Shown: positions 24,266-48,286, counted from the first letter of the stretch. The stretch: DNA of 64,000 nt from Dehalococcoidia bacterium (GCA_963555985.3 OY820591.1:1152001-1216000); one strand, 5' to 3'. Notes: a model not told the origin generated them from the letters alone. A program made the numbers and translations.

Positions 24266-24352
24266 TGGTGTACGCCTCGGCTTCCCGCTCTCTTGCCGGA
24301 CACACGCGACGCCTGTCCGGACCACTCAGTGGTCGCCGTTCGCGGTTGTGGA

Positions 24353-26392: not shown

Positions 26393-26491
26393 CGCTCTCT
26401 CCTTCTCAACGCGACGTGTGCCGACACGTCCCGCGCGTAGGTGCGGGTAAGATAGCGTCTTGCCAGTCAAATTGCTACGAGGGGCGGAAAC

Positions 26492-28012: not shown

Positions 28013-29212
28013 CTACTCCTCCGAACCGCTCGTCTCCGGCGTCGGGCCGGTGAACAGCGGCAGCAAATCCGACACCCGCACGCGGTCGGCCACGGTTGGA
28101 TCGAGCAGTACCCGCGCCCCGTTGAGGAAGACCCGCGGATGCAGCTCGTTGTAGTCCAACAAGTACGCCAACATCATCGCCGAGACCGAGAGGTAGCCCT
28201 GGATCAGCGGGTGGTCCCAAACGAGGAACTGCACATTACCTGCCTCCACTTCGGCGGCCAGCGCTTCGCTGAAGCCGAAGCTGCCCAGGGGAATCTCCAG
28301 CTCCAGCGCCTGCAACTCGGACAGCACGGTCAACGCGGTGTCGGCGTTCAGGGTCAGGATCGCGCCGATCCCGCCTTCCGCGATCCGCGCCGCGATCGCC
28401 GCTTGCGCCGCTCCCAGATCGGGCGCGCCCTGCGGATCAATCGTCAGCCGCTCCACTTGGCCGCCGTCGTAGCCGTCCGCGAGGCCTTCGCAGCGCTCGT
28501 CGAGGCCGATGTTGTTGGCTTCATGCACGACGCAGAGCACCGTGCCCTCGACGTCGTGCGCGTCGAACTGATTGCCCGCGCGGAGACCGCCGGCATAGTC
28601 GTCCACGCCCACGTGAATCACCGAACCGACCCGAGCCGCCTCGCGGTTGCCGGAGTTGAAGGTCGCCACGATCATGCCGGCCTCAGCAGCTTCCGCCAGC
28701 ACCGGCGCCAAGTCGTCGGGGTACGGCAACGAGCTGGCGATCGCGACCGGGTTGTAGGCCAGACAGTTGCGTATGTCATTGATGTGTTCAGCGCTATCGC
28801 GTCCGGCGTAGATCCGCAGGTCAATTCCGCTCACGTATCCGGCGGCGTCGGCGACCGCCAGCAGCCACGCCCAGAAACGATCGTCCTCCGGATAAGCGTG
28901 CCCGTGGATGCACATCACCGTGCGCTCTGGCTCCGGCGCTGCGGCCTCGACAGCCACCGGCGAACTCCAATGCCATGTGCCCACCTCGGCCTCGGCGGAT
29001 AGGTACCGCGCCTCCGGCCGCTGGGTCTCCTGCCACGCGCCATCCGCTCCTCGCTGTTGGACTGCGACTTCCACCCGCCCATCCTCGACATGGCGCACGC
29101 CGACGCGCACATCGGTGGTCGCGGTCAAGGCGCTGATCACGCCCAGCGCCAGCGCGCCCAGCACCAGCCCGACGACCAGAGTGATCAGATGGGACTGCCC
29201 GACTCGCTGCAT
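28013..29212 (-). CDS. Orphan type 1 periplasmic-binding protein with N-terminal DGRxE domain (paralogue 1)
   Basis: N-terminal hydrophobic segment; DGRVE..W..P.ARYL..W..SS; HG..D.FW, TFNSG, CVVHEANNIGLDERC, DHP.IQGY. Confidence 0.8.
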   Translation of the reverse strand: MQRVGQSHLITLVVGLVLGALALGVISALTATTDVRVGVRHVEDGRVEVAVQQRGADGAWQETQRPEARYLSAEAEVGTWHWSSPVAVEAAAPEPERTVMCIHGHAYPEDDRFWAWLLAVADAAGYVSGIDLRIYAGRDSAEHINDIRNCLAYNPVAIASSLPYPDDLAPVLAEAAEAGMIVATFNSGNREAARVGSVIHVGVDDYAGGLRAGNQFDAHDVEGTVLCVVHEANNIGLDERCEGLADGYDGGQVERLTIDPQGAPDLGAAQAAIAARIAEGGIGAILTLNADTALTVLSELQALELEIPLGSFGFSEALAAEVEAGNVQFLVWDHPLIQGYLSVSAMMLAYLLDYNELHPRVFLNGARVLLDPTVADRVRVSDLLPLFTGPTPETSGSEE

Positions 29213-29292
29213 CGCGTTCCCCGCTCATACTCGTCTGGCTCTGTCTCACCAGAGCATAAGCGGGGAACGGCTCTGAACCCGATCGGCGCGGC

Positions 29293-30849
29293 TCAGCGCG
29301 GCGACACCAATCCCTGCAACAACGCCAGGGCGACCGCCTGATCCGCGATCCGCGGCACGATGTACAGGACCGAACTGCCCAGGTAGACATCAGCCGGCGC
29401 ATCGAGGATGTTGGCCAGGCTCATCGTGGCCGTCGTCAGGTAGCCCTGCACCAGCGGGTGATCCTCGACCACGAACAGCAGCGCGCCGCTCAACACCTGC
29501 GTCACGTTGACCAACTCAACCCCGAACGTCGCCCCGACCACGTCGGATCCCGTGCGGGAGATCGCGACGCCGAGCAGGATGCCCGTGTTCCCGTTCAACG
29601 TGATGATCCCGGCCGGCGCGTCCGGGCCGCTGACCAATCCGAAGAATGTCTGGGCCACGGCGTTCCGGTCGGCCAGATGATGAATCGGGAACCGCTCGAC
29701 CTCGCCGCCGTAGCCCTCGGCGAACCCATCGCAGCGCTGCTCCAGGCCGACGTTGTTCGCCTCATGCAGGACGCAGAGCACCTTGCCCTCTACGCCTTCC
29801 GCCTGGAAGCGCTCGCCGGCGAGCACGCCGCCGCGATAATCGTCCAACGCGATGTGCAACACAGATCCGACCCGCGCCGCGCTCTCGGCGCCGGAGTTGT
29901 ACGTGACGACCGGGATGCCCGCCGCTCGCGCCGCCGCGATCGGCTCGGCCACCTGCTCCGCATCCGCCAGCGTCGTCGCGATCACGCTCGCCCCGGCCTC
30001 GATGCACTCGCCGATCGCCGCCGCTTGCCCGTCGCTGCCGCCGTGAATGACCCGGGCATTGGTCCCCAGGTCGGCGCCCGCCGTCCCAGCGGTCGCTCCC
30101 AGGCGTCCCCAGAACGTGTCGGTCGTTGAGTCGCCGAACGCGCCGGGTGGACCGTGACCGACGATGCAGAACAGATCGTCCGCCGGAGTTCGATTGGGAC
30201 GGAACTCGCGAACGAACGCGTAGAACGCGGGCGACTCGCCCGGTGGCGGCGGTGCCTGCGCGGCCATGATCGCAGTCGACAGACTCGTGGCGATGCCGAA
30301 GTCCACCGCTTCCGACGCCGCCATTGCCGCGCTGTACTGCCCGATCAATTCCGCCGGGTTCAGCGACGAGATCGTGGTCACCTCGCCGTCGTGCAGCTCC
30401 CGAATGGTGTCGCAGATGCGGTGCAGATCGTCTCCATGCGTGTCCGAGACGAGGCACAAGACCGGTTGGCCCGGAGCAATGTGCCCCGACTCTACGAACT
30501 CCCTGGGATCAGCGGTGATGTCATAGCGCGCGCCCGTGTGCGCCGCGCCGACCGGCGCATCGACGGCAACCGGCGAACTGTTGCGCCAGACATTCGCTTC
30601 GGCGTCAGCCGCGAGGAATCGCGCCGCCGGCAGCAGCCGCTCGCCCCAGCCGTCGCCCTCGCGCTGCTGTACTCCGACCTCTACGCGCCCGTCGTCCAGC
30701 CGCTTGGCTAGAACCCGAACCTCCAGTTCATTTCCGCTGCTGTTGTCATCGTTGGATTGCACGACCCCCAGCACGAGCGCGCCGACGGCCATGCTCAGCA
30801 GCGATGTGAGCAACAACGCAGACGCGAACAGACGCTTGGAGATAGTCAT
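29293..30849 (-). CDS. Orphan type 1 periplasmic-binding protein with DGRxE domain and extra internal module (paralogue 2)
   Basis: Same motifs as paralogue 1 plus ~100 extra residues. Confidence 0.8.
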   Translation of the reverse strand: MTISKRLFASALLLTSLLSMAVGALVLGVVQSNDDNSSGNELEVRVLAKRLDDGRVEVGVQQREGDGWGERLLPAARFLAADAEANVWRNSSPVAVDAPVGAAHTGARYDITADPREFVESGHIAPGQPVLCLVSDTHGDDLHRICDTIRELHDGEVTTISSLNPAELIGQYSAAMAASEAVDFGIATSLSTAIMAAQAPPPPGESPAFYAFVREFRPNRTPADDLFCIVGHGPPGAFGDSTTDTFWGRLGATAGTAGADLGTNARVIHGGSDGQAAAIGECIEAGASVIATTLADAEQVAEPIAAARAAGIPVVTYNSGAESAARVGSVLHIALDDYRGGVLAGERFQAEGVEGKVLCVLHEANNVGLEQRCDGFAEGYGGEVERFPIHHLADRNAVAQTFFGLVSGPDAPAGIITLNGNTGILLGVAISRTGSDVVGATFGVELVNVTQVLSGALLFVVEDHPLVQGYLTTATMSLANILDAPADVYLGSSVLYIVPRIADQAVALALLQGLVSPR

Positions 30850-30900
30850 GACGAACTCTCAATCTGCCTAGACAATGCGCCTTAGTCGAACGCGCGCAGG

Positions 30901-31131
30901 CTAGGACATGTTCAGACTGCGCGAAGTGTATCGGCGCTGTTTGGCGGGAGAATTTCGGAGGGATTGAGCGGATCTCCTGGCGAGCGCTGAGGATCGTGCG
31001 TTCGCGGGTCTGGATTTGTCCAGATTTGTCCAGATCCGTCTGGATTCATCTCGATTCGGGCGGATTTTTTCCAGGCGAATCCGGGCTTGTCCAGCACTGT
31101 TCAGGTTTGGCGCGAGTCGCGCATGGGACAC
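30901..31131 (-). CDS. Possible small ORF spanning the phased array (may be non-coding)
   Basis: GGGAGA RBS before GTG; TATAAT at 31170-31175 on the minus strand; low-complexity product. Confidence 0.3.
   Translation of the reverse strand: MSHARLAPNLNSAGQARIRLEKIRPNRDESRRIWTNLDKSRPANARSSALARRSAQSLRNSPAKQRRYTSRSLNMS
31008..31110. repeat. 10-bp-phased array (element copy 2)
   Basis: GTCTGGATTT GTCCAGATTT GTCCAGATCC GTCTGGATTC ATCTCGATTC, then TTCCAG/ATCCGG/GTCCAG/GTTCAG at 10-bp spacing. Confidence 0.8.
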
Positions 31132-31215
31132 AGCGGTCTCCCATTGGCTTCGTGCGTGTATATGTTCTGATTATACCCGGTTTCGCCTCGGTGGAGGAGG
31201 GCGGGGCGGGGACCG

Positions 31216-31232
31216 CCGAGGCTCAGCCTCGG
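31216..31232. repeat. Perfect 17-bp palindrome
   Basis: CCGAGGCT-C-AGCCTCGG in the divergent intergenic region. Confidence 0.5.
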
Positions 31233-31379
31233 GACCAGCGCGCGTGCGGGCCGGCCGCGCTCGTGGTTGTGTGAACAGGCCCGAGCCCGTGACGACGGCG
31301 CGCGTGAAAGTCGGGGCTACCCTGCAGTCAAGCGGATCAATTCGAGACCGCCGCCGCCAGCCCGATCGGAGCGTCTTCC

Positions 31380-33689
31380 ATGCCGTCCACCTCGTCGACG
31401 ATGTCAACCCTGCCCCAGATCGACGGAGAGCTGACCGCCGACGGTCTGGAAGCTCCCGTCCGCATTGTCCGCGACCGCTGGGGCGTGCCCCACGCCGAGG
31501 CGCAATCGGCCCGCGACGCCTTCTTCGCGCAGGGCTTCTGCCTCGGACAGGATCGCGGCTGGCAGCTTGAGTTGTACCGGCACATGGCGCACGGACGCGC
31601 TGCGTCGCTGCTGAACAAGGGGCTGCTGCGGATCGACAAGCTCAACCGCACGCTCGGCTTCGGCCGCGACGCCGCGCGCGAGTGGGAGGAGCAGTCGGAC
31701 GAGGCGCGCATGATCTTGCAGGCCTACGCCGACGGCGTGAACGCGGCCATTGCCGCCGGACCTGATCCGGTCGAATTCGGGCTGCTGGATCACACGATGC
31801 AACCGTGGTCGCCGGTCGACTCGCTCGCGATCCTCAAGATGGTGTCAGCCAACGTGCACTGGGGGATCAAGATCGGCAACGGCGAAGTCGCCTCGCGGCT
31901 TGGGCTCGAGGGATTGCAAGCACTGATCCCCGACGTGCCCGCCGACGCCGCGCTGATCGCGCCCGCCGGCGCATCGTGGACCAACGGCGCCCACGCCTTC
32001 GCCGGCGCGCTCGCCGACCTCGAATCCGAGCCGGGCACGCGGCGCGGCGGACTGGATGGCTCCAACTGCTGGGTGATCGACGGCGCGCACACCGCCAGCG
32101 GCAAGCCGCTGGTCGTCGGCGACCCGCATCTCGCCTTCAGCGTCCCCCCGCAGTGGTACGTCATGCATATGCAGTGCCCCGAGTTCACCGTCGCCGGGCC
32201 GTGCAGCCCCGGCTATCCGGGACCGGTCTACTACGGACATAACACGCAGATCGGCTGGACGATGACCCACGCCCAGGGCGACCGCTGGGACGTCTACCGC
32301 GAGCGGATCGTGCGCAACGGCTCGGGCCCCGAGGCCAAATGGCTCGACAGCTCAGAACCGCTGCAACGGCGCGACGAAGTGATCGAGATCCGCGATGAGG
32401 AGCCGATCACCCAGACCGTCTGGTCAACGCGGCACGGCCCGGTCGTGCACGGCGACCCTGAGTCCGACGACGAAGTCCTTGCCGCCCGATTTGGCCTTGC
32501 TGACCCCTGCCACGACTTCGACGGAATGCTGACCATCTTCACCGCCGACAACATCCACGACGCGCGGCAAGGGTTCCGCCGCTACGACTCGATCTCAGGC
32601 AACTTCTGCTTCGCCGACCAGCAAGGCGACATCGGCTACCAGTACACCGGTCGCATCCCGATCCGCGCGGCCAAGCTCACGCCGGTCAACGGCTGGGACG
32701 GCGAGCACGAATGGAACGGCGATATCCCCGCCGACGAGCTGCCGCAAGACCTGAACCCAGCCGACGGTGTGATTATCACCGCCAACAATCGCACGACGAC
32801 CGACGACTACCCCTACTACCTCAGCTTCAGCCAGACGCCCTACCGCGCCGACCGCCTGCGCGAACTGCTGCAAGGCCGCGACGACTGGTCGCCCGAAGAC
32901 ATGCCCGAAATCCAGTCCGACCAGACCAGCCTGCACGCCCGCTACATTGCCGCTCGCGTCGGACGGGCCAACATCGGCAACGGAACCGCCGCCCCCTCCC
33001 GTCATTCCCGCGCAGGCGGGAATCTCGCCTCCGAGCTACAGGCGATGCTGGCCAACTGGGACGGCCACATGGCCGTTGATTCCGCCGCCGCGCTGGCCTA
33101 CTACGAGTTCTGCGAGCAACTGATCGCGCTGACCGTCCGTCCCTACTTCAATGCCCCGTCGCGGATTCCTCAGAGCTCGTACGAGGAGATGCGCATCCTC
33201 CACGAGCAATTGAAGGCGGATAGTTCGCTCACCCTGCCCAATGGCAAGTCTTGGAACGACGCGATCGCCGAAGCGCTCACCACCACCGCCGCAGTGCTGA
33301 CCGAGCGCCACGGCCCCGATCGCAGCCAATGGCAGTACGGCGACGCGCATCCCGTCACCTGGCGGCACAACCTCGGCCGCGATCCTGAACGCGCCGCTCG
33401 CTTCAATGTCGGCGATTTTCCCAAGGGCGGAGACGGCAACACGCCCAACAACGCAACCGGCTTGATCAACAAGCCCGCCGACCACGGCGTGAGTTACCGC
33501 CAAATCTTCGACCTGTCCGATCTCAACGGCGCACGGATCGTACTGCCGCCGGGCAACTCCGGCCGGCCCGACAGCCCGCATTACAGCGACCACATCCACA
33601 AGTGGCTGGAGATGGAGTACTTCCCGCTCTACATCGAGTGGGCCGACATCGAAGCCAACGCGGAGGGCGCGCTGACCCTGCGCTCGTAA
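31380..33689 (+). CDS. Penicillin acylase family Ntn-hydrolase
   Basis: RDRWGVPH, QDR.WQ, GSNCW nucleophile Ser, GDPHL, GHN, TRHGP, TANN, GNSG..SPHY; no clear signal peptide. Confidence 0.93.
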   Translation: MPSTSSTMSTLPQIDGELTADGLEAPVRIVRDRWGVPHAEAQSARDAFFAQGFCLGQDRGWQLELYRHMAHGRAASLLNKGLLRIDKLNRTLGFGRDAAREWEEQSDEARMILQAYADGVNAAIAAGPDPVEFGLLDHTMQPWSPVDSLAILKMVSANVHWGIKIGNGEVASRLGLEGLQALIPDVPADAALIAPAGASWTNGAHAFAGALADLESEPGTRRGGLDGSNCWVIDGAHTASGKPLVVGDPHLAFSVPPQWYVMHMQCPEFTVAGPCSPGYPGPVYYGHNTQIGWTMTHAQGDRWDVYRERIVRNGSGPEAKWLDSSEPLQRRDEVIEIRDEEPITQTVWSTRHGPVVHGDPESDDEVLAARFGLADPCHDFDGMLTIFTADNIHDARQGFRRYDSISGNFCFADQQGDIGYQYTGRIPIRAAKLTPVNGWDGEHEWNGDIPADELPQDLNPADGVIITANNRTTTDDYPYYLSFSQTPYRADRLRELLQGRDDWSPEDMPEIQSDQTSLHARYIAARVGRANIGNGTAAPSRHSRAGGNLASELQAMLANWDGHMAVDSAAALAYYEFCEQLIALTVRPYFNAPSRIPQSSYEEMRILHEQLKADSSLTLPNGKSWNDAIAEALTTTAAVLTERHGPDRSQWQYGDAHPVTWRHNLGRDPERAARFNVGDFPKGGDGNTPNNATGLINKPADHGVSYRQIFDLSDLNGARIVLPPGNSGRPDSPHYSDHIHKWLEMEYFPLYIEWADIEANAEGALTLRS
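32999..33027 (+). repeat. Family A palindromic repeat inserted in-frame in the acylase gene
   Basis: CCGTCATTCCCGCGCAGGCGGGAATCTCG, identical to the reverse complement of 2488-2516; read as RHSRAGGNL. Confidence 0.9.
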
Positions 33690-33734
33690 CACCCGCCCGT
33701 TCAATGCCTGGCGGGGTTGGCGGGGCCGTTGCGT

Positions 33735-34994
33735 TCACTCGCCTGTCGGCGGGGTGAACGGATACAGGTCGCCGACGGGCCGGAAGTAGCGCGCCATGAA
33801 CAACGCCTGTTCGCGCAAGAACACCCTCGGCGTCAGCAGCAGTGGCGCCGATCCGTAAGTGTTCGCGCCCGCGGCGGATGAACCGCCCCATGACGGCAAC
33901 GTTTCCTGCGTCAGTTTCATCATTGCGACCGCGGCGTAGCCCTGCGTCGTCGGCTCGTCCCAGATGAAGAAGAGCATCCGGCCATCGATCACCGCCTCGA
34001 TCGAATGGCGACCCACGCCGAATGTGGCCAGCGGGATTCGCAGATCGAATCTCTCCATGATTTCCAGGACGACATCACCGATCGCCCCGTTGAGCGTGAC
34101 GACGACGCCAACCCTCGGTAGGTCGGGTCGGGCCATTCGCGCTCCGATGGCGCGCGCGATGCCTTCCCAGTCGCCGATCTCCGGTGTGTAGAGGCGCTCA
34201 ACCTCGCCCCCGTATGCGTCGGCGAGTCCGTCGCAGCGGCGCTCGAGGCCCGTGTTCTGCGCCTCGTGGATGACGCAGAGCGCGAGGCCGCTGGTCCCGG
34301 CCGCGGTCAAGTGCTCGCCCGCCAGTTGTCCGCCCGTGACGTTGTCGAGGCCGACATGCATGACCGTGCCGACGGCCGAGGCCGCTTCAACCCCGGAGTT
34401 GAAGCTGACCAGGGCGATGCCCGCCTGGTCCGCGGCGGCCAGCGAATCCTTCAGCGGATCGGGATCCGCCAGCGTTGTCGCGATTCCGACTGCCCCGTCG
34501 GCGACGCACTGGTCGATCAATGCCGCCTGCTGTTCGGCGTCGTCGTGGCCGCCGATGCGAAGGTTCAGGTTCATGTCTCGAGCGGCAACGGCGGCGGCTG
34601 CGCGGGCGAAGCGCCAGAACACATCCTCCGCCGCGCCGTGGTGAATGAAGCAGTACAGGTCGTCGCTGCCCGGCGAATCGACCGCCAGGCCCGCTAACGA
34701 AACGGCGGACGATGATCTCCATTCGCCTACGGTTGCGTCACCGGGCAGGAACCGGGCCGTCGGCAGCAGACGCTCGCTCCAACCATCTACGCCGCCCTGT
34801 TGCAGTCCGACCTCCGTACGTCCGTCTGCAAGTACCCGGGCCTGGACGCGCACCTCATTGTCGTTGGTTCCGCCCTGCTGCGCTTGCGTCTGGCCGAGCA
34901 GATACGCCCCCAGCCCGAGTCCGACGACCACGAACAGGGCGAATACGCCCGCACTGAGCAGCCTTGGCTGTTGAATCAACGAATGCCATCTCAT
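33735..34994 (-). CDS. Orphan type 1 periplasmic-binding protein with DGRxE domain (paralogue 3)
   Basis: DGRTE..WSERLLPTARFL..W.SSS; HHG..D.FW; SFNSG; CVIHE..N.GLERRCDG; AAGGAG RBS. Confidence 0.8.
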   Translation of the reverse strand: MRWHSLIQQPRLLSAGVFALFVVVGLGLGAYLLGQTQAQQGGTNDNEVRVQARVLADGRTEVGLQQGGVDGWSERLLPTARFLPGDATVGEWRSSSAVSLAGLAVDSPGSDDLYCFIHHGAAEDVFWRFARAAAAVAARDMNLNLRIGGHDDAEQQAALIDQCVADGAVGIATTLADPDPLKDSLAAADQAGIALVSFNSGVEAASAVGTVMHVGLDNVTGGQLAGEHLTAAGTSGLALCVIHEAQNTGLERRCDGLADAYGGEVERLYTPEIGDWEGIARAIGARMARPDLPRVGVVVTLNGAIGDVVLEIMERFDLRIPLATFGVGRHSIEAVIDGRMLFFIWDEPTTQGYAAVAMMKLTQETLPSWGGSSAAGANTYGSAPLLLTPRVFLREQALFMARYFRPVGDLYPFTPPTGE

Positions 34995-35140
34995 GTCTGT
35001 ACTCCTTCTTGAGCGGCATTAACCGTCCAGTGCGGGCTGACGCCGCCAACGCTTTCTCGGTTTCGGCTGCCAGGATCGCGCGGAGGGCGTGATCCGGTCG
35101 TCGCCCGTCTAACAGCCGCGCCGTCACAGCGGTGCGTTCA

Positions 35141-36343
35141 TCAAGGCGCTCCCTCGCCTTCGCCGCCCGATCGCTGCCCGCCCCGGAATCGCTCGACCAT
35201 GCCGGCGAGCGCTTGGGCTGTCGCTTGCGCCCGAGCAAGATCAAACACTACCGGTTCCAGCAGCACCTTCGTGCCGCCGAGCACCAGCGACGCATCCCCG
35301 AAGCGTCCGTGAAATCCTGCCTGAGCCAGTGCACCCGCTGTCGTATACGCCTGCACGTGGGGATGGTCGTAGACCACGAAGAGCAGCTGACGCTCCAGGA
35401 CCTCGAAGATGGCGGCTAAGTCCAATCCGAAGGTGGCAAGGACGATCTGCCGCTCGCCAATCGCGTTTCGGGCGATCCCGCGCAAGCCGCCATTGAGCAG
35501 CAAGATGCCGCTCACGCCCCCAGCCTCAAGTCGTTCCGCGATCTGCGCCTGCGACCCTGCCAGATCGGAGACGCCGGTCGAGTCGATCCGCAGGCGCTCG
35601 ACCGTCCCCTCGAACGTCGCCTCCAGACCGTCGCAACGCTCTTCCAGTCCGACGTTTTCGGCTTCGTGAATGATGCAGAGGATGCGGCCCTCAATCCCGT
35701 TCGCGTTGAACGTTTCGCCGGAGCGCTCGCCGCCCAGGCGATCGTCCAGGCCAATATGCATGGCGCTGCTGCTGGCCGCGGCGTATTCCGCGCCGGAGTT
35801 GAAGGTCACGATTTGCACGCCCGCGGCGCGCGCCTCAGCCAGGGCCGGCGCCAGCGTTTCAGGCGCGGCCAACGTTGAGGCGATCGCAACCGCGCCGTCT
35901 TCGACGCACTCTCGTACCAATCCCGCTTGCTTGTCTGGCGTTGACCCGGTGACGAAGCGGAGGTTCATCTTCATGTCTTCGGCGGCCTGCTCGGAGCCGG
36001 TATCAACCCCGGACCAGAAGATGTCGTCCGCCTGACCGTGACCGACGATGCAGAACAATGCGCCGTCCTGATACCGCCCTGCGCCGACATCGAGCGGGGA
36101 ACTCACCAACCATCTGCCGGCCTCGGCTTCGGCCGATAGGAAGCGCGCGTTGGGCAGTTGCCGCTCGCTCCAGCCGCCGCCCGCTTCGCGTTCCTGCAAG
36201 CCAATTTCGACCCGGCCATCCCCATGCCGCTGCGCGACGAGCCGCACCTCGCCGCCGCCGGTGTGCATCGCCAACGCTGTTCCTGCCGCTCCAATGAGCA
36301 GGCAGACGATGCCGACCAGGACATACTTGTACAGGTCTCTCAT
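35141..36343 (-). CDS. Orphan type 1 periplasmic-binding protein with DGRxE domain (paralogue 4)
   Basis: DGRVE..WSERQLPNARFL..W.VSSP; GHG..D.FW; TFNSG; CIIHE.EN.GLEERCDG. Confidence 0.8.
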   Translation of the reverse strand: MRDLYKYVLVGIVCLLIGAAGTALAMHTGGGEVRLVAQRHGDGRVEIGLQEREAGGGWSERQLPNARFLSAEAEAGRWLVSSPLDVGAGRYQDGALFCIVGHGQADDIFWSGVDTGSEQAAEDMKMNLRFVTGSTPDKQAGLVRECVEDGAVAIASTLAAPETLAPALAEARAAGVQIVTFNSGAEYAAASSSAMHIGLDDRLGGERSGETFNANGIEGRILCIIHEAENVGLEERCDGLEATFEGTVERLRIDSTGVSDLAGSQAQIAERLEAGGVSGILLLNGGLRGIARNAIGERQIVLATFGLDLAAIFEVLERQLLFVVYDHPHVQAYTTAGALAQAGFHGRFGDASLVLGGTKVLLEPVVFDLARAQATAQALAGMVERFRGGQRSGGEGEGAP

Positions 36344-36410
36344 GCGACACCACCATTCACTAGGATATCAGTGTGGCGTAATGATAGTGCCGTTAAATCG
36401 TGAAGTTCTG

Positions 36411-37673
36411 CTACGTCGTCGCCTCAACGCTGGCTCGCAGAATCGATAGCCCGCGCTCGAGATCCGCATCCTCAATCGTCAGCGGCGGCATCAGCTTGAC
36501 CACATCCGAGGCCGCGCCGCCCGAAGTCTCCATCAACAGACCGCGCTCAAACGCCGCCTCGGTAATCCGTGACGCCATCCCGTCAACCGGTGTATGTAGA
36601 CCTTGAAGCAACCCACGACCGCGCACCGTCGCGCGCAAACCTTCATGTTCCGACGCGATCGATTCCAGTTCCTCGCGGACGATCATCCCCTTGCGCCGCA
36701 CTTCATTCGAGAGCGAGTCGTCGCCCCACCAGTTCAGCGCCTCGGTCGCGGTCACAAACGCAGCGTTGTTCCCGCGAAACGTCCCGTTGTGCTCGCCCGG
36801 CTCCCAGATATCCAGCTCCGGCCGAATCAGCGTCAGCGCCATCGGCAGCCCCGCGCCTGAGATCGACTTCGAGAGGCAGATCAGGTCGGGCTGAATCTCC
36901 GCCGGCTCGAAGGAGAAGAACGTCCCCGTCCGTCCGCAGCCGGCCTGGATGTCATCCACGATCAGCAGCACGCCGTGGCGCTGGCAGCATTCCGACAATC
37001 CGCTCAGCCAGTCGAAGCTGGCGGTATGGAGGCCGCCCTCACCTTGCACCGTTTCGACAATCACGGCGGCAGGCGGTTCGCTACTGGTCAGGATCGCATC
37101 CAGCATCGAGATTGTATCCACCTCGGGACCGAGCTCACCATCGAATGGCGCTGTGATCTGGTACTCCAGCGGCACGCCCGCCGACTCGCGCTTGACGACA
37201 TTGCCGCTCAGCGCCAATGCGCCGAGCGTCATGCCGTGGAATGCGTTGCTGAACGAGACGATCGTCCGCCGTCCGGTCACCTTCCGCGCTAGCTTGAGCG
37301 CCGCCTCGACTGCGTTGGTGCCGGTCGGACCGGGGAACTGCACCTTGTACGACATCCCCCGCGGCCGCAGGATCACTTCATCAAAGCGCCGCAGGAAATC
37401 GCGCTTCGCGGGCGTCGCCATGTCCAGGCTGTGCAGTACCCCGCCCGATTGCAGATAGCGAATCAGCGCCTCAATCATCTCCGGCGGATTGTGACCGTAG
37501 TTGAGGCCGCCGGCGCCGCTGAAAAAATCCAGATAGGCGCGCCCCTGCTCGTCCCAGAGCGTTGCCCCCTGCGCACGCTCCCAGACGGTCGGCCAGGAGC
37601 GAATGTAAGAGCGTACGCTCGACTCGAGCTCCGAGAACGTGTCCATCGAATCACAGACCGTCGTTCTCGGCAT
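36411..37673 (-). CDS. ectB: Diaminobutyrate-2-oxoglutarate transaminase (start may be 37646)
   Basis: LESSVRSYIRSWP, DFFSGAG.LNYGHN, QFPGPTGTNAVE, ETVQGEGG, DDIQAGCGRTG, LSKS, PGEHNGTFRGN. Confidence 0.9.
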   Translation of the reverse strand: MPRTTVCDSMDTFSELESSVRSYIRSWPTVWERAQGATLWDEQGRAYLDFFSGAGGLNYGHNPPEMIEALIRYLQSGGVLHSLDMATPAKRDFLRRFDEVILRPRGMSYKVQFPGPTGTNAVEAALKLARKVTGRRTIVSFSNAFHGMTLGALALSGNVVKRESAGVPLEYQITAPFDGELGPEVDTISMLDAILTSSEPPAAVIVETVQGEGGLHTASFDWLSGLSECCQRHGVLLIVDDIQAGCGRTGTFFSFEPAEIQPDLICLSKSISGAGLPMALTLIRPELDIWEPGEHNGTFRGNNAAFVTATEALNWWGDDSLSNEVRRKGMIVREELESIASEHEGLRATVRGRGLLQGLHTPVDGMASRITEAAFERGLLMETSGGAASDVVKLMPPLTIEDADLERGLSILRASVEATT

Positions 37674-37757
37674 TGACCGCCCTCACCTTCGCTCCCGACC
37701 GCCTCCTTCCACTATGCACCATCATCAGGTCGCTGTCAGGCTCAGCAAGCCGGTGTG

Positions 37758-39773
37758 TCAGTCGCCGCCCGCGTGATCGCCGTGCTCGTGATGCGCGGCG
37801 TGGTCGTGCTGATCGTGACCCTCGTGCTCGTCGTGAGCGCAGTGATCGGGCATCGGCACGTCCAGGCCCGGATTGCGGTCGAAGAAGCCCCACGGCTTCA
37901 GCTTGAAGCCCGCGCGGTGAACCGGCGCCACCGGCCAATCCTCCGGACAAACGATGTGGTTCATCCCCACCGTGTACCAGACCACGACATCCTCGTCCTG
38001 GAGCGAACGATCAGCCGCCATCCAGGCCGGAATGCCCTGGCCGGGTTCGCTCTGATTCGGATAGTCGCCCGCCGGGTAAAACTCGTCCGGCGAATACGGC
38101 GTCACGTGCAGCTGCTTGCGCGCGAACTTGGCCCGACCGCCGACCGCCGACTGCTCGTCCGCCATCATCCCGACCGTCTCGCCCGGAACCAGCACGTACG
38201 CCGGCGGCTGACCGAGCGGATTCGTCGTCGTGTCGTTGGCGATCCGCCAGTGGCGCGCCGAGGCCGAGTTGACCACGCTCGCCGCCTCCGACTCCCGCGA
38301 CAGCAGCCGCGCCTCCGCCGTGAAACCGTTCAGCAGCGGATTGTCCGGACCCGCCGGCAGCGGCACCGTGTCCACCTCGTAGACGCTGTTCGCGTCGCCG
38401 TCGACTTCCATGTCCAGGCGGAAACAGTAGAAGTGCTGGTGAATCGTGCCCGCCAGCCCGGGCTGAATGATGTGCCGCGTGATCTGCGGGTCATCCTCCG
38501 CAATCGCCGTCGTCTGGATGATCCCGGTCGCCTTGACCTCCTGCTCCCACGACCCGTCCTGGTAGAAGTACCAATAGAAGCCGTAGTCGTAGTTCCCCAC
38601 CGTCGCGATCGCCGACACCACCAGCCGCCGCGATCGCCGCACCCAGGACTCAGGACCGCGCTTCGTATCCGCGTACGTGTGCTTCCAGAGGATGCCAAAG
38701 TCCTCCTCGTGGATGCAGACTGCGTTCTTGATCGTGCGCGCGCCGCCGAATTCGTTCGTCACATGCGCATCCATGTAGACGATCTCGCCCAGACAGTCGC
38801 AGCCAAGTTCGAGCGAGTTCGTCAACCGGCCCAGGCCGCCCACCTCGCCGCTGTCGAAGGCGTTCTTGAAGTTCTGCGTGATCCGCGGGTCGCCGTAGGG
38901 CACGACCATCTCCGCCATCGACGCCCGGTAGCAGATCGGCCGCAGCCGGCCGTCGTCGTCATACGCGATCTGGTGCAACACCAGACCCTCGCGCGGATGC
39001 AGCGAGACCCGCATCTGCCACTTCTGCCACTTCAGCAGCTGACCCTCGAGCGTGAATGACACGCCCTCCGGCTGCACGATCTCCAGCGGCTTCAGGTCCT
39101 CGCGCGGATGCGCCGCCGCGTGTTCCCCGTCAAAGCGCAGCGTGCTCGTGGGAATCGGAACCGCATCTTCCTCGACCACTTCCAGCACTTTGTTGTTGAT
39201 CAGGTCGACTACCGCCATCACGCCCTCAACCGGGCGCCCATAGCCGTTGTCGTCCTCCGAGTCGCGCAGGTAGGCGATCCCCTTGAGGATGCGGTGCTCG
39301 GTCTCCCACTTGTTGCCGAAGTTGCCCGCCGGCCAGGGGTCGATCTGGATGTGCTCGAACTGATCCTCAGTCACGCCCTTGCGCATCATCGCCGCGCGCC
39401 ACTCAGGATCGTTCTTGATCGTCTCCTGCGCCCGTCCAAACTCCTCCCCCAGCGGGAACGGCTGAACGTCATTCCGGGCAACCCAGGACTCAACCGAGTC
39501 GTCGCCAAGATTGACCACCGCCTCATGCGTGTCGCCGTTGGACGTGTCGAAGACAATGACAAACGCCCGCCGCTCAATCGGATCCCCAGCGGAGAACGAC
39601 TTGACGGCCCGCTTGTCCGGCTCATGCAGAGCGACCAGAGGGAAGCGGATGGATTCCTGTCCACCAGCTCTGGCCTTAGCCAGTTCCGAGGCGCGGCTGA
39701 TCTCGTCAGGGGTCAGAGGATCGAGAGGGTGCGCAGTAGTTGCAGGCGCTGCGGGTTTGGTTTCGGTGACCAT
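37758..39773 (-). CDS. tynA: Copper-containing primary amine oxidase (TPQ) with His-rich tail
   Basis: HPLDPL, KNAFDSGE, LGCDCLG, TVGNYDY (TPQ Tyr), HQH and NH copper ligands, EDWPV; CAGGAG RBS before ATG 39773. Confidence 0.93.
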   Translation of the reverse strand: MVTETKPAAPATTAHPLDPLTPDEISRASELAKARAGGQESIRFPLVALHEPDKRAVKSFSAGDPIERRAFVIVFDTSNGDTHEAVVNLGDDSVESWVARNDVQPFPLGEEFGRAQETIKNDPEWRAAMMRKGVTEDQFEHIQIDPWPAGNFGNKWETEHRILKGIAYLRDSEDDNGYGRPVEGVMAVVDLINNKVLEVVEEDAVPIPTSTLRFDGEHAAAHPREDLKPLEIVQPEGVSFTLEGQLLKWQKWQMRVSLHPREGLVLHQIAYDDDGRLRPICYRASMAEMVVPYGDPRITQNFKNAFDSGEVGGLGRLTNSLELGCDCLGEIVYMDAHVTNEFGGARTIKNAVCIHEEDFGILWKHTYADTKRGPESWVRRSRRLVVSAIATVGNYDYGFYWYFYQDGSWEQEVKATGIIQTTAIAEDDPQITRHIIQPGLAGTIHQHFYCFRLDMEVDGDANSVYEVDTVPLPAGPDNPLLNGFTAEARLLSRESEAASVVNSASARHWRIANDTTTNPLGQPPAYVLVPGETVGMMADEQSAVGGRAKFARKQLHVTPYSPDEFYPAGDYPNQSEPGQGIPAWMAADRSLQDEDVVVWYTVGMNHIVCPEDWPVAPVHRAGFKLKPWGFFDRNPGLDVPMPDHCAHDEHEGHDQHDHAAHHEHGDHAGGD

Positions 39774-39864
39774 GGTGGGTGTCTCCTGTGTTCCGGTCTT
39801 GAGCGGAGAGTAACCGAATTTGAGCAGACGTGAGACATGTCCTGAGACAGACACACTGGAGGTA

Positions 39865-39895
39865 TTGACATCATTGCCAGCATTGAGACACAATG
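39865..39895 (+). promoter_or_regulatory. Sigma70-like promoter TTGACA-N18-CACAAT overlapped by inverted repeat CATTG-N5-CAATG
   Basis: TTGACA 39865-39870, CACAAT 39889-39894, inverted repeat 39881-39895; AGGAGG RBS downstream. Confidence 0.6.
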
Positions 39896-39917
39896 CCGAA
39901 CGAGATAGGAGGAACAG

Positions 39918-40469
39918 ATGAACATCGAGGTAGACAGCGAGGTATTCGCAGCCCTCCAGAGGGAGGCGGTGCCGCTAGTGGACAATCCCAATGACGTATT
40001 GCGGCGTCTGTTGGGACTCGATCCGACTGAAGAAAGAGCCTCGGCCGGTGATCAGATTGTCTTTCAGCCGCCTCTCCCACGCAGGCCTGCACAGCGTGCC
40101 GCCTCCTCGAATGGAGCTGCGGGGACTGGGAGTGCCAAGCGCCCTTCAAAGTCCAGACGCGCTGCGGGCGAATTGCTCCCCTTGGAGGCGTACTGCCCAC
40201 ACATCTTGCAAGCGCTGATTGCCAGTGGCGGAGAGCTCCGTAGTCGCGAGGTGCCCGACGCGCTCGCGCCCTTGCTCGAACCTCACCTGTTTGCCGCAGA
40301 TAAAGGACTGGATGCTGATGGTGTTCCTGTCTGGCATGGACGAGTCGGCTGGGCCGGAAGCCTCTGTCGCAAGGCGGGTCACCTGGATCTAGCAGCCCCA
40401 CGAGGCATTTGGCGGATCACCCACGACGGCCGCGAAGCAGCGGCGAATGCGAATGGAGAATCGAGATGA
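39918..40469 (+). CDS. DNA-binding protein: SeqA-N/RHH-like N-terminus plus Mrr_N-like winged helix, no nuclease domain
   Basis: IEVDSEVF..DVLRRLL N-terminus; PHILQAL..GG..W.GRVGWA...RKAGHL...RGIWRIT.DG. Confidence 0.7.
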   Translation: MNIEVDSEVFAALQREAVPLVDNPNDVLRRLLGLDPTEERASAGDQIVFQPPLPRRPAQRAASSNGAAGTGSAKRPSKSRRAAGELLPLEAYCPHILQALIASGGELRSREVPDALAPLLEPHLFAADKGLDADGVPVWHGRVGWAGSLCRKAGHLDLAAPRGIWRITHDGREAAANANGESR

Positions 40470-42904
40470 CCGATGTCAACAAGCAGCTTTGCCTTGCCTT
40501 GATGGGTGCTGAGTCAGGAAAGGAGATCATCGATCTGCTTACGGACGCTGGCTACTGGGAAGACTCCTCTGCTTGGCGACTGCTGGGCGATGCTGAGAAC
40601 AATTTCTCAGTGGTGGGAAGCCAACAGAGCGAGCCAATACCTGCTCTCGTTGAGAAGATCGTGAACTCCATCGATGCGCTGCTGCTCGGCGAGTGTCGCG
40701 CGCGGGGAATCGATCCAGAGAGCGACTTAGCGCCAAAGTCGCCGCAGCAGGCCGTAGCGGAGTTCTTTGAGAATCGTCTACACGGCGAATTCAACCCCGC
40801 TCAAGACGGCCAGATCGAGTATTGGCATGAAGACCGCGTTAGAGAGGTAGCGAGACATCTCACAGTCACGGCGAGCGGTGCCAAACCCAGAGAGGGAAAT
40901 CCATCGGTCTCTATTGCCGACGGCGGTGAAGGGCAGTCGCCAGACGAATTTCCGAATACGCTCCTTTCGCTTACCAAGTCGAACAAGCTTCGAATTCCAT
41001 TTGTGCAGGGCAAGTTCAACATGGGAGGCACAGGTGCACTGCAGTTCTGTGGGACACCTCAGAATTTCCAACTCATCGTGTCCAAGCGGCGGCAAGACAT
41101 TCCGGCGACCGATACGGATCCGCGGCGTGGCGAGTGGGGCTTCACGATTGTGCGACGCGACGATCCCGCCGGATCTGAACGTAGTTCGGTCTACAGGTAC
41201 CTTGCCCCTGATAGAGCCGTTCTCTCATTCCACGCTCCGGAGCTTGGGATCTTTCCAGACGAGACTACGGGCCAGCCCTATGGACGAAGCAGCTCGCACG
41301 GCACGCTCATCAAGCTCTATGCATATCAGGTTGGATCGAATCGCTCGACCATCACCAGGCGGGGAGGGCTGTTCCGACGAATCGACGCTGCCCTCTCACG
41401 AGCGATTCTCCCCGCACGATACCTAGACACTCGTTATCCAGGAAAGCAGGGTACGCAAGAAAGCAGGGAAAACGGTTTCGGAGTTGAAACGCTTTTGCAT
41501 CGAAGGCGTGCTGAGCTCCTAGAGCCGATGTTTCCACATGTCGGCGAGATTTCGGTTGATGGTGAGCGACTGACAGTGCGAGCTTATGCGTTCCTTCCTC
41601 CGAAGAGCACGAGGAGCACGGGACGCCGTCCCGCTGAGTTGTATCGGTCTCGCAGCAATGCGGTTCTCTTCCTAATCAACGGCCAAATGCACGCAGCACA
41701 AGACACTCGCTTCTTCGCGTCGTCGCGTGTTGGTCTCGATTATCTGCGGCAAGACCTGTTTGTGACAGTCGATTGCACTTCTCTATCCCGTCGATCTAGG
41801 GAAGACCTATTCATGAACAGCCGCGATCGCATGCGCGATGTACCACTGCGCCGTGATCTCGTTACAGCCTTGGAGGAGTTCCTCCGCGATCACCCCGCCT
41901 TGCAGGCACTCAACAGAGCGCGCGGGGATGCGCTTCGTAGCCAAAACGAATCGGAACACGCGGTCAAGAGTTTGGTTGAGCAATTGCTCAAGGATCATCC
42001 CGAGCTACAACGGGTCCTGTTAGGTGGACGCGCGATCCGGCCGATAGTCGATCCGCCACCGCCTCCCCCGTTCAAAGGGAAGGAGTTTCCAACGTTCTTT
42101 TCGCTTGAGTCTCCTAAAGAGAAGGACGGAATCGCTTCCACCGCAACTGCAAGAACTTCGCGGCTGCGCCTTCAGTTTCGTACCAATGCCGAAGATGGGT
42201 ACTTCACTAGGCTCAATGACCCTGGCTCCATGTCCATCTGCGATGCGGAGACAGGGAGAGAGCTTACTCAGCACTTCTCGCGCACGGGTCCGGTGTCTGG
42301 AGTTTGTACGATCGTGGCTCGGCACTTGCTGGCGGAGCGCCAAGTCGGGGATGTGGTTGCGCTCAGGATCATCGTCTCTGACAACAATCCGAAGCTAAGG
42401 CCTTCCTTTGAATCCTGCGTGCGGGTAACGGTCAAGGAAGAGGCGTCCCCGCCGAATCCACCTTCACCACCCGCTCCGAAGCTCGACCTGCCTGTAGTCA
42501 CGGAGGTTTGGAAGACAGGATCGCCGGGTTGGGCTGATCTTCACGACTCCGAAGAGTTCGTCTTCAATCATCAGACCGCTGTGCAGATACGGCGGAACTC
42601 TAGTGGAGCCACAGTTGCGGCGTTTGACATCTTCATCAACATGGATAACGCGAACCTCGATCGGGCAAGACGGCGCGCGCGATCCCCGGACGAAATCGAG
42701 ATGCTCAATACACGCTGGCGCCAGGTCTTTGAGTTCCTCACGCTTGGATTCATCTCGGACCACAGTCGATCACTGGCCGAAGACAACGGGAAGAAGGCCG
42801 AGCAATGGTACGAGGAGTCGCCCGGCTCCTTCGTCTATCATGCGACCCGATCCCTCGCTCCCCTTGTCCCGGTGCTGGGCAGTCTGTTCATTGCGAAGGC
42901 CTGA
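40466..42904 (+). CDS. GHKL (MORC/MutL/TopoVIB-like) ATPase with uncharacterised C-terminal domains
   Basis: ALVEKIVNSIDA (motif I), IADGGEGQ (II), GKFNMGGTG (III), HGTLIKL (IV); ATGA overlap with the upstream gene. Confidence 0.75.
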   Translation: MTDVNKQLCLALMGAESGKEIIDLLTDAGYWEDSSAWRLLGDAENNFSVVGSQQSEPIPALVEKIVNSIDALLLGECRARGIDPESDLAPKSPQQAVAEFFENRLHGEFNPAQDGQIEYWHEDRVREVARHLTVTASGAKPREGNPSVSIADGGEGQSPDEFPNTLLSLTKSNKLRIPFVQGKFNMGGTGALQFCGTPQNFQLIVSKRRQDIPATDTDPRRGEWGFTIVRRDDPAGSERSSVYRYLAPDRAVLSFHAPELGIFPDETTGQPYGRSSSHGTLIKLYAYQVGSNRSTITRRGGLFRRIDAALSRAILPARYLDTRYPGKQGTQESRENGFGVETLLHRRRAELLEPMFPHVGEISVDGERLTVRAYAFLPPKSTRSTGRRPAELYRSRSNAVLFLINGQMHAAQDTRFFASSRVGLDYLRQDLFVTVDCTSLSRRSREDLFMNSRDRMRDVPLRRDLVTALEEFLRDHPALQALNRARGDALRSQNESEHAVKSLVEQLLKDHPELQRVLLGGRAIRPIVDPPPPPPFKGKEFPTFFSLESPKEKDGIASTATARTSRLRLQFRTNAEDGYFTRLNDPGSMSICDAETGRELTQHFSRTGPVSGVCTIVARHLLAERQVGDVVALRIIVSDNNPKLRPSFESCVRVTVKEEASPPNPPSPPAPKLDLPVVTEVWKTGSPGWADLHDSEEFVFNHQTAVQIRRNSSGATVAAFDIFINMDNANLDRARRRARSPDEIEMLNTRWRQVFEFLTLGFISDHSRSLAEDNGKKAEQWYEESPGSFVYHATRSLAPLVPVLGSLFIAKA

Positions 42905-42931
42905 ACACGGTTCACTTTGGACGATGAAAGG

Positions 42932-42963
42932 CAGGGGCGCGACCCCATCGGGGCCGCCCCTTG
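42932..42963. terminator. Imperfect GC-rich hairpin between convergent genes
   Basis: CAGGGGCGCGACCCCATCGGGGCCGCCCCTTG with short T runs on both strands. Confidence 0.45.
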
Positions 42964-42983
42964 ATTTGGTGCCTGACCACCGC

Positions 42984-44261
42984 CTACTCGTGACAGAAGG
43001 ACGGCGCCTGATCCGGCGCCAACTGCATCGCCAGGGCGCAGACCTGCTGCTGCCAGCCCTCGGGCAGGTGGCTGATGTACTCCTGATTGACCGCCCAGGG
43101 GCGAACCAGCATCGTGGTCGTTTCGGGAGCTTGCTGCGCGGTCAGCGCGAGCATGGCGCGAATACTGGGGCTGGAGTCGACGTTCTTGAGCGAGAGCATC
43201 ACGTGGCTGGCCTGGGCGTTGCCGCCGTCGTCGATGACGAAGAGCAACTGACCCTCGTAGACCTGAACGAGCGCGAACTGAGAGCGTCCGACGACGCCGA
43301 CGAGCGTGTCGCTGCCGAGGAATTGCACGACCCCGATGGCGGTGTTGATCAATGCGCCATTGAGGATCAGCACGCCGGCGGCCTCGTGCGTCGCGATTGC
43401 CTCGCCGATCGCCCGGCCCGACGCCACGGGGTCGGTCAGGCTGCCCGCCGGGAGCATGACCTGCACCACCGAGCCGCCGTACACGCTTTCGAGGCCCTCG
43501 CAGCGCTCCGGCAGCGCGAGGTTCACCTCTTCATGGATGATGCAGAGCACCGCGCCGGTCGCGCCCGCGTCGTTGAACTCGCGGCCCGCAAGTTCGCCTG
43601 CGGCGCGATCGTTCAGTCCGTAGTGGACCGTTGAACCGACCAGCCCGGCGACTTCGTCGCCGGAGTTGAAGGTGACGAGGAACGCGCCGCTGGTTCGGAC
43701 GGCGATCAGCGCCTCTTGCAGCCCCTCCAAGTCGGGAATCGATGAGGCGACGCCCAGCGCGCCGCGATCGATGCAGTCCATGATCATTGCTGCGTGCTCA
43801 GCGATGTCCGTCGTACTCTGAATCTCCACATTACTCAGGCCAAGCTCGTAGGCGTTGGCCTGAGCCACGGTGTCGAAATCGACCCAGAAGGGGTCATCGG
43901 CCCGGCCGTGGTGGATCACGCAGTAAAGGTTGTCCGACCCGGCCGGCGCGTCGGGCATAGCGCTCATCGCGTCCGTCGCTTGGGCGACGGTCAAGCCGAC
44001 CGGCGAAGACATACGCCACTCGCCGCTCACATCGGCCGGCAGGAAGCGAGCCTCAGGTCGTTGCAGTTCGCCCCAGCCGCCCTCGGCGTCGCGCTGCTGG
44101 AGAGCGACCTCGACGCGGCCGTCGTCGAGGCGCTTGGCTCCGATCCGAACTTCGGCGTCGGAACTGTGGCCGGCGGCGTAGATCACCCCGGCGATGATCG
44201 CGACGAGCGCGCTGAGCGCGAGGACTGCGGCGCTGATTCGTCGTTTCGTGTTCAGGAACAT
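42984..44261 (-). CDS. Orphan type 1 periplasmic-binding protein with DGRxE domain (paralogue 5)
   Basis: AAAGGAGG RBS; DGRVEVALQQR..W..PEARFL..W.MSSP; HHG..DPFW; TFNSG; CIIHE..N.AL.ERC. Confidence 0.82.
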   Translation of the reverse strand: MFLNTKRRISAAVLALSALVAIIAGVIYAAGHSSDAEVRIGAKRLDDGRVEVALQQRDAEGGWGELQRPEARFLPADVSGEWRMSSPVGLTVAQATDAMSAMPDAPAGSDNLYCVIHHGRADDPFWVDFDTVAQANAYELGLSNVEIQSTTDIAEHAAMIMDCIDRGALGVASSIPDLEGLQEALIAVRTSGAFLVTFNSGDEVAGLVGSTVHYGLNDRAAGELAGREFNDAGATGAVLCIIHEEVNLALPERCEGLESVYGGSVVQVMLPAGSLTDPVASGRAIGEAIATHEAAGVLILNGALINTAIGVVQFLGSDTLVGVVGRSQFALVQVYEGQLLFVIDDGGNAQASHVMLSLKNVDSSPSIRAMLALTAQQAPETTTMLVRPWAVNQEYISHLPEGWQQQVCALAMQLAPDQAPSFCHE

Positions 44262-46514: not shown

Positions 46515-46652
46515 GTTCCCGCTTCACGCGGGAACCCGCCCCCTTCCACTCTCCCCCGCAGGAGGAGACATCGCAAACCCCCTCCCCCCTCTGCGGGGGG
46601 AGAATGTCACGTAGAGCCTGCCCCCGCGAAGGCGGGGGACAGAGGGGGGGCT
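46515..46652. repeat. Cluster of family A, TIR-like, family B and nested module C repeats
   Basis: GTTCCCGCTTCACGCGGGAAC; GAGACATCGCAAAC; CCCCTCCCCCCTCTGCGGGGGGAG..GTAG-AGCCTGCCCCCGCGAAGGCGGGG-GACAGAGGGGGGG. Confidence 0.8.
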
Positions 46653-48284: not shown

Positions 48285-48286
48285 TG

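Follow-up and report, generated by a model that had tools for sequence, protein, structure and literature searches.

An undescribed module, predicted to pair with itself, on membrane-tethered orphan Peripla_BP_4 binding proteins of uncultured Dehalococcoidia

ATP-binding cassette (ABC) importers of the CUT2 family are recognised by a gene for a substrate-binding protein (SBP) standing together with genes for a BPD_transp_2 permease and an ATPase. The use of one importer by several binding proteins is well established, as for HisJ/ArgT, LivJ/LivK and the OppA1-5 proteins of Borrelia. The closest solved relative of the proteins described here is 4RU1, the structure of Acel_1806 from Acidothermus cellulolyticus, a CUT2-family monosaccharide ABC SBP within PF13407 (Peripla_BP_4). 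We analysed a stretch of 64,000 nt from Dehalococcoidia bacterium (GCA_963555985.3 OY820591.1:1152001-1216000), hereafter the window, in which five minus-strand genes (Table 1) encode proteins with a PF13407 domain. The original prediction, made from the sequence of the window, had described them as orphan binding-protein paralogues sharing an unrecognised N-terminal domain, and had proposed a role for this domain in surface anchoring, sorting or docking. We report that this module of about 55-60 amino acids is an undescribed extracytoplasmic beta-rich domain family, that its carriers extend far beyond the five genes, and that it may act by pairing with itself.

The five open reading frames (ORFs) begin with an uncharged hydrophobic run of 20-25 residues, and the module starts 0-12 residues past the end of this run. 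The frame of the fifth gene is open to a TTG at 44420; since this longer version would run into the thiolase gene at 44407-45711, translation more likely begins at the ATG at 44261. A lipobox cysteine, by which lipoprotein-type SBPs are recognised, was sought at the end of the signal peptide and found in none of the five proteins (0/5). In the full-length AlphaFold2 (AF2) model of paralogue 3, with a mean predicted local distance difference test (pLDDT) of 82.4, a helix (residues 11-38) is followed by the module, from residue 47 on, and by the binding domain at residues 113-405. With 35-40% identity over their full length the five proteins are clear paralogues, and the mean pairwise identity of the module (55.8%) exceeds that of the binding domain (37.5%). 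The five-way alignment has V35, R36, D44, G45, R46, E48, Q52, G58, W60, E62, P66, A68, R69, L71, W80, S83 and S84 (P0001 numbering) as invariant module columns. When a profile built from the five copies was run against the six-frame translation of the genome, each copy was regained at E-values of 5e-31 to 2e-28, and chance is therefore excluded as an explanation of the motif. Four cysteines (C101, C150, C227 and C241, same numbering) are conserved without exception among the five proteins and 33 relatives. The description given in the original prediction is thus upheld for the ORFs and the start of the fifth gene, the hydrophobic segment without a lipobox, the written motif, the two cysteine pairs and the stronger conservation of the small domain.

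No described family accounts for the module, as had been suspected. Neither Pfam-A nor NCBIfam has a family covering it in the five proteins or in module-only proteins (E-values up to 1), a profile search of Protein Data Bank (PDB) sequences gave a best match at E 0.12, and the models of known wall and surface domains (SLH, LysM, G5, SH3b, PG_binding and CWB2) showed no sequence match to it. The AF2 model of the module, made from 38 copies of this genome, reaches a pLDDT of 92.9 and consists of a beta-hairpin and a third short strand with ordered loops. Searches with this fold gave no convincing relative: the best Foldseek match in the PDB was at E 0.36, and VIA-align, in a wide search and a second look, yielded none either. 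A two-module protein used as query in the ESM Atlas had a best score of 0.84, with unnamed clusters only. Two scans of viral contigs returned 77 and 114 pattern matches with no relative, and no phage lysin or tail protein bearing the module among the proteins scanned. A literature search found no description of the module or of the ligand of 4RU1, and supplements may still list such proteins.

A search of the genome (3.33 Mb in 11 contigs, completeness 96%, contamination 7.5%) found 42 module copies in 33 distinct ORFs at E<=1e-5, of which 24 have one copy and nine have two. Near-identical repeats of the module genes C1:2546052-2547293 and C1:1359578-1361059 on contigs C3 and C5 were counted once; such repeats on small contigs fit the 7.5% figure, as contamination or redundancy. 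The module is thus shared by the five paralogues as predicted, with the correction that it is confined neither to them nor to binding proteins. Its partners comprise 16 Peripla_BP_4 domains, Peripla_BP_6, a Cu/Zn superoxide dismutase (SOD), an M23 peptidase, Cache, AhpC/TSA, a propeller protein, an SBP_bac_1-type protein inside a complete SBP-permease-ATPase operon, two RCC1-repeat proteins with a module pair at the extreme C-terminus, and several proteins without a known domain. Five module proteins without a Pfam domain (Table 1) share a C-terminal motif close to (D/E)-T-P-V-Q-P-N-L-D-x-C-G, which looks like a second undescribed domain travelling with the module.

When 1.84 billion representative proteins were profiled, 1733 clusters were found at E<=1e-3, 1401 at E<=1e-10 and 391 at E<=1e-30. 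We examined the best 150 representatives, a list biased to multi-copy proteins since scores sum over copies. In 104 of them the modules stand directly after an N-terminal hydrophobic segment, in 14 they are C-terminal, and 30 contain little beyond modules. Partner domains were sought in 99 of the 150, selected by length, and included RCC1 (20), trypsin-like (11), leucine-rich repeat (LRR, 8), SLH (4), ankyrin (3) and cadherin (2) domains, in agreement with the expectation of an extracytoplasmic module displaying varied passengers.

The taxonomic range bears out the proposed lineage restriction. The module was found in 58 of the 65 genomes of the window's order (one family, 10 genera), each carrier having 2 to 66 matches, and in none of the six genomes of four genera of the order that lack it (0/6). 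Across the phylum, in an even sample for which at most 15 candidates were scored per genome, it was present in 9 of 401 genomes, this one included, and absent from 392 of the 400 others. Named records carrying the module are almost all metagenome-assembled genomes of Chloroflexota/Dehalococcoidia; the exceptions are one Tepidiformaceae metagenome-assembled genome, two Acidimicrobiia (one of them a Candidatus Poriferisodalis, for which our literature search found no paper) and one unclassified bin. Many carrier bins have names that look like those of sponge-metagenome series.

The binding domains add new members to a known class and depart from it in one feature, operon linkage. PF13407 scores 40.6 to 93.1 bits in the five proteins (E 2.9e-10 to 2.7e-26), above its gathering cut-off of 35.1 bits in every case, in keeping with the sugar-binding-like fold first proposed. 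A profile made from the 33 relatives found 4RU1 in the PDB at E 6.1e-54, the second-best match being at 5e-16. Foldseek with the full-length model of paralogue 3, whose binding domain is mostly above pLDDT 90, also returned 4RU1 (E 8.3e-23, template-modelling score TMt 0.85-0.88), together with ribose-, glucose- and arabinose-binding proteins at E 1e-14 to 1e-16. As modelled, the binding domain of paralogue 3 would have the two-lobe alpha/beta type I fold and be superposable on solved sugar-binding proteins.

The window proteins and 4RU1 have in common the two-lobe fold, the motifs H-x5-6-D-x-F-W, F-N-(S/A)-G and C-V...R-C, and the second cysteine pair. The second pair is therefore a feature of the subfamily; the first is missing from 4RU1. 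Nothing in the deposited chain corresponds to the module (profile positions 102-395 align with chain residues 11-299), sequence identity to the chain is only about 25%, and the window proteins, unlike 4RU1, are helix-tethered and orphan. The top NCBIfam model for all five is NF052284, an equivalog for the ABC SBP of rhizopine catabolism; they score 64.5 to 95.3 bits against a cut-off of 420 bits and are therefore not members of this equivalog. Among 19 homologues and 13 cluster members only one annotation name was found, that of a distant JGI 'simple sugar transport system substrate-binding protein'. Across genomes, orthologues of paralogue 3 keep 84-91% identity, as against 45% at most for paralogues, indicating that the family is old and each member conserved, as would be expected if the deep paralogues had distinct specificities. 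We regard the five as type-II membrane-tethered SBPs of the CUT2 sugar/cyclitol class, sugars or cyclitols being the putative class of ligand.

Paralogue 2 has an extra stretch between the module and the binding domain, which contains a C-x-V-x-x-T-H-G-D-D segment resembling the start of the binding domain. A similar extra stretch, of roughly 120-150 residues or more, is present in a row of four tandem paralogues at C1:2122165-2129281. From its sequence, the insert of paralogue 2 may be a degenerate partial duplication.

That the genes have no permease or ATPase neighbour, as originally noted, was verified by searching the whole window for ABC_tran (PF00005) and BPD_transp_2 (PF02653), which gave no match anywhere; the five genes thus lack the linkage expected of a CUT2 importer. 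The only permease genes in the window are two BPD_transp_1 genes (22338-24325) belonging to the adjacent SBP_bac_5 lipoprotein gene. Of the 18 distinct Peripla_BP_4 genes in the genome, 16 have the module; BPD_transp_2 matches number only seven, and transporter linkage was found for none of the 16 (0/16). One paralogue, at C1:2546052, was considered for linkage to a nearby ABC operon made of two permease genes, two ATPase genes and their own lipoprotein receptor, and was rejected, as an oxidoreductase gene and an opposite-strand gene lie between. Of 79 module loci recovered from other genomes, 71 encode a gene joining module and binding domain, often two or three in a row. A scan of these loci (flanks <=3 kb) with profiles made from this genome's own genes found an ABC ATPase in 1/71 and a BPD_transp_2-like permease in 0/71. 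The orphan state is conserved across relatives, which lie outside sugar ABC operons.

A candidate importer is encoded elsewhere in the genome. At C1:2908102-2911920 two Peripla_BP_4 genes without the module immediately precede matches to a BPD_transp_2 permease and to an ATPase. These two SBPs score 207 and 146 bits on the profile of the orphans, which themselves score 305-422 bits, and they are the closest module-less relatives of the orphans in the genome. By resemblance to them and by analogy with importers that serve several receptors, we suggest that each orphan paralogue most likely catches a different small polar solute and probably passes it to the single common CUT2 translocator encoded there.

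Several observations indicate that the modules work in pairs. The best 150 representatives have two copies in 129 cases, four in 16, three in four and five in one; the multi-copy bias of the list does not favour even over odd numbers. Tandem modules abut, the median gap between their envelopes being -2 residues, with no linker. Where the nearest relative of a module was not its own partner, it occurred 130 times at the matching position of another protein and 23 times at the opposite one, and the pairs are therefore inherited as units. In complex modelling, two copies reached an interaction prediction score from aligned errors (ipSAE) of 0.79, as compared with 0.01 for the best of three controls, and three runs had at least 97% of contacts in common with a partner pLDDT of at least 88. 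During calibration of the tool the mark was reached by 20/30 pairs of one chain and by 1/23 single-chain proteins, a calibration that is rough here because our own alignment was used. In the predicted contact the first strand (residues 7-12, V-R-I-x-A-R) runs antiparallel to residues 48-56 (G-x-W-x-x-S-S) of the other copy, and reciprocally; the gap of -2 residues fits this antiparallel contact, with the geometry of a hairpin-like, linker-free tandem junction. The N-termini differ with copy number: single-module proteins of the genome mostly have uncharged hydrophobic runs of 19-26 residues, and two-module proteins mostly runs of 14-20 residues followed by Ala-x-Ala-like sites, which suggests signal anchors in the former and cleaved signal peptides in the latter.

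Our preferred reading, which in our judgement stands about evenly between right and wrong, is that the module pairs with itself next to the membrane, on orphan CUT2-type receptors that probably serve a single importer in common. Two modules would interlock, the first strand of one being set against the C-terminal W-x-x-S-S segment of its partner. Secreted proteins would bring both halves in one chain, as the linker-free tandem pair, and the tethered SBPs would hold one half each and pair at the outer face of the membrane as homo- or heterodimers. At minimum, a single juxtamembrane module would put the SBP on a defined foot there. Docking, one of the three roles first suggested, survives in this changed form, as predicted pairing of the module with itself. 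The surface-anchoring role is not borne out in the form first given: for the five proteins their own helix of 20-25 residues is the simplest explanation of anchoring, and the module lies too near the membrane to reach a wall.

A number of points weigh against this proposal. The complex score is the model's own confidence and may replay the contact between tandem neighbours present in the alignment; the mark used to judge it has only 23 single-chain calibrators behind it; and the list of 150 from which the counts are drawn leans to multi-copy proteins. Modules are 76% identical within a protein and 57% between proteins, which could come from recent duplication and not from a need for symmetry. 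In the full-length model of paralogue 3 the module region has a pLDDT of only 52-77. Pairing offers no obvious reason for the pairs on secreted RCC1, LRR and protease proteins, and the co-occurrence of SLH in 4/99 representatives fits a surface role without discriminating between readings. On the receptor side, the ligand class is poorly constrained, the best NCBIfam model being so far under its cut-off; the shared-translocator step has family resemblance and known precedent as its whole basis; and the subunits of the proposed translocator are known from one permease match and one ATPase match.

A tentative alternative, possible if on the unlikely side, is that the module is a non-covalent envelope retention domain which, single or in tandem, binds peptidoglycan, a secondary wall polymer or an S-layer component and would keep secreted proteins on the surface of a single-membrane cell, as SLH, LysM, CWB2, GW and SH3b domains do; this would be compatible with pairing. 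The module resembles SLH (PF00395), LysM, CWB2 and G5 domains in its small size, terminal position, tandem copies and promiscuous passengers. Its terminal placement in the 150 representatives, the tandem copies on many unrelated extracytoplasmic proteins and the M23 peptidase with two modules are in line with such a function, as is the lack, in many two-module proteins, of any anchor besides a cleavable-looking signal peptide. An LPxTG-type signal with a hydrophobic tail, sought in the last 60 residues, was found in none of the genome's module ORFs and in 1/150 representatives; the genome has one sortase match. Sponge SAR202 genomes are reported to lack peptidoglycan genes (PMC6306507). Wall-synthesis genes are present in the genome analysed here, with four transpeptidase-bearing ORFs and six Mur-ligase matches, and a search of it for SLH domains found none, both of which would suit a retention domain. 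The carriers with a name are, bar the unclassified bin, Chloroflexota or Acidimicrobiia, which also agrees with it. However, in the five SBPs and in most single-module proteins the 0-12 residues separating the module from the membrane helix leave it too near for a wall layer. Many polymer-binding modules are consistently charged, whereas the charge of this one is not conserved (isoelectric point 4.3 to 12.0, mean net charge -0.6 over 38 copies), which weakens the case for electrostatic binding to the wall. Presence in only 8 of 400 other sampled Chloroflexota means that it does not track a phylum-wide wall component, SLH as a second anchor in 4/99 representatives would be redundant, and the structural matches obtained were at noise level, with root-mean-square deviations of 5-6.7 A. 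At C1:1055082-1059440 the genes of two proteins with a module pair, which is C-terminal in an RCC1 protein and N-terminal in an M23 peptidase, sit together with a Mur-ligase-family gene, possibly a wall-remodelling neighbourhood that would bear on the retention function.

A broader form of the pairing proposal, which we consider unlikely, would make the module a new self-recognising pairing domain organising the cell surface, with combinatorial homo- and heterodimers formed among the 16 SBPs, the SOD, the Cache protein and other single-module proteins. The adjacent genes 28013/29293 and 33735/35141 would then encode preferred partners. If true, this would be a previously unseen way of building two-headed solute receptors. 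The module may, in addition, have passed between Chloroflexota and Acidimicrobiia living in a common habitat.

The orphan state could also mean that the proteins are not transport receptors at all, and serve as sensors, signalling to a kinase, chemoreceptor or regulator, or as sinks for host-derived compounds. We judge this quite unlikely. It would account for the lack of adjacent transporter genes here and in 70/71 related loci, and for the imbalance between 16 paralogues and seven BPD_transp_2 matches, only one of which lies beside SBPs of the same subfamily; a Cache-domain protein also bears the module, and sensor SBPs have a precedent in XylFII-LytS, PDB entry 5XSJ being among the weaker structural matches. 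The recurrent neighbours of the genes are, however, catabolic and not signalling genes: 2-oxoacid:ferredoxin oxidoreductase (17 cases), short-chain dehydrogenase (17), thiolase (15), copper amine oxidase (11) and amidohydrolase (10) recur in the related loci. In addition, the nearest module-less relatives in the genome are the SBPs of a complete importer, and sharing of a translocator by several SBPs is well known, both of which favour transport.

Very doubtful, in our estimate, is a passive foot or spacer, partnerless, that sets the distance or orientation of the passenger from the membrane or from the mature N-terminus. A small beta-rich module, confidently modelled alone and always placed between the anchor or signal and a low-complexity linker ahead of the passenger, could serve in this way, and would be compatible with an ordinary importer SBP in a complete operon. 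Yet a spacer has no need of the near-invariant surface-type R, D-G-R, E, W, P, R, W and S-S that persist across 38 diverged copies, nor would it be expected in even copy numbers or at the extreme C-terminus of RCC1 proteins, and the two-copy model passes its controls. A sorting signal, the last of the roles first suggested, is rejected, as the module occurs in one to five copies at either end of proteins and is not accompanied by an LPxTG-type signal.

Table 1. Coordinates of the five paralogues, their modules and neighbouring genes in the window, and of the proteins of the genome sharing the C-terminal motif
Feature	Coordinates	Strand	Description
Paralogue 1	28013..29212	-	399 aa; signal-anchor helix + module + Peripla_BP_4; PF13407 E 5.1e-21
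Module copy of paralogue 1	28934..29125	-	profile E 2.2e-25; core + 3 flanking residues per side
Paralogue 2	29293..30849	-	518 aa; anchor + module + extra insert of ~125 residues + Peripla_BP_4; PF13407 E 3.7e-20
Module copy of paralogue 2	30547..30738	-	profile E 2e-25
Paralogue 3	33735..34994	-	419 aa; PF13407 E 2.7e-26
Module copy of paralogue 3	34680..34868	-	profile E 4.2e-24
Paralogue 4	35141..36343	-	400 aa; PF13407 E 5.1e-21
Module copy of paralogue 4	36071..36262	-	profile E 9.2e-25
Paralogue 5	42984..44261	-	425 aa from ATG at 44261; open frame to 44420; PF13407 E 2.9e-10
Module copy of paralogue 5	43977..44165	-	profile E 4.7e-24
ApbA (ketopantoate-reductase family)	27016..28008	-	co-oriented with paralogues 1 and 2; context gene, outside the module family
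Class-III aminotransferase	36411-37673	-	upstream of paralogues 4 and 3; similar neighbours in 7 related loci by clustering only
Copper amine oxidase	37758-39893	-	upstream of aminotransferase and paralogues 4 and 3
Thiolase	44407..45711	-	directly upstream of paralogue 5
C-terminal-motif proteins	C1:1917148-1918002, 2017373-2020813, 979544-981562, 2151049-2153196, 2348652-2349293		module-bearing

In the window the paralogues stand in three same-strand runs with enzyme genes, namely amine oxidase-aminotransferase-paralogue 4-paralogue 3, thiolase-paralogue 5 and paralogue 2-paralogue 1-ApbA reductase, an arrangement mirrored by the enzyme neighbours of the related loci. The stop codon of paralogue 1 is four bases from the downstream ApbA-family gene, and an ApbA-like neighbour was seen in seven related loci, found by clustering only and recognised by eye from its N-terminus. 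Clustering of the flanking ORFs in search of a recurrent membrane partner yielded only enzyme families and spurious high-GC frames. The SBP_bac_5 lipoprotein of the 22338-26470 region has a twin-arginine-like signal, an L-V-G-C lipobox and a long Gln/Ala/Pro-rich linker and is followed by its two BPD_transp_1 genes; with no ABC ATPase match in the window, this importer seems reliant on ATPases encoded elsewhere. Two stretches, 39918-42904 and 46651-49285, have a GC content of 0.58-0.60 vs about 0.65 and hold an Mrr_N-domain ORF, an 831-aa ORF without a clear domain, Uma2, GmrSD_N + HNH and an EcoRI-type adenine methylase; these defence-type stretches are likely acquired islands interrupting the paralogue cluster. 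At 50747-54955 a 1402-aa protein with eight divergent InlB B-repeat (Flg_new_2) matches is encoded, a large surface-type repeat protein without the module.

Taken together, these results make the module probably a new building block of the cell surface in an uncultured group of Chloroflexota. It is among the most multiplied extracytoplasmic domains in a family of uncultured Dehalococcoidia, and has neither name, model nor structure. Once it is defined, at least 1733 protein clusters could be better annotated, including RCC1, LRR, ankyrin and cadherin repeat proteins; such repeat proteins are discussed as host-interaction factors in sponge symbionts. Pairing, if true, would provide a simple, testable rule for the assembly of surface proteins as well as a compact dimerisation tag, and the 16 orphan receptors lying beside catabolic genes offer a handle on the dissolved organic compounds taken up by the group.

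Among known systems, GlnPQ, in which two binding domains are fused to the permease, likewise keeps receptors of differing specificity at the membrane, where those of the present family would presumably serve one translocator as well. By analogy, the predicted module dimer would set two binding domains side by side as in GlnPQ. Unlike in GlnPQ, the tether is a separate helix combined with an unnamed module of predicted pairing function, and the receptors number 16 and stand next to catabolic genes.

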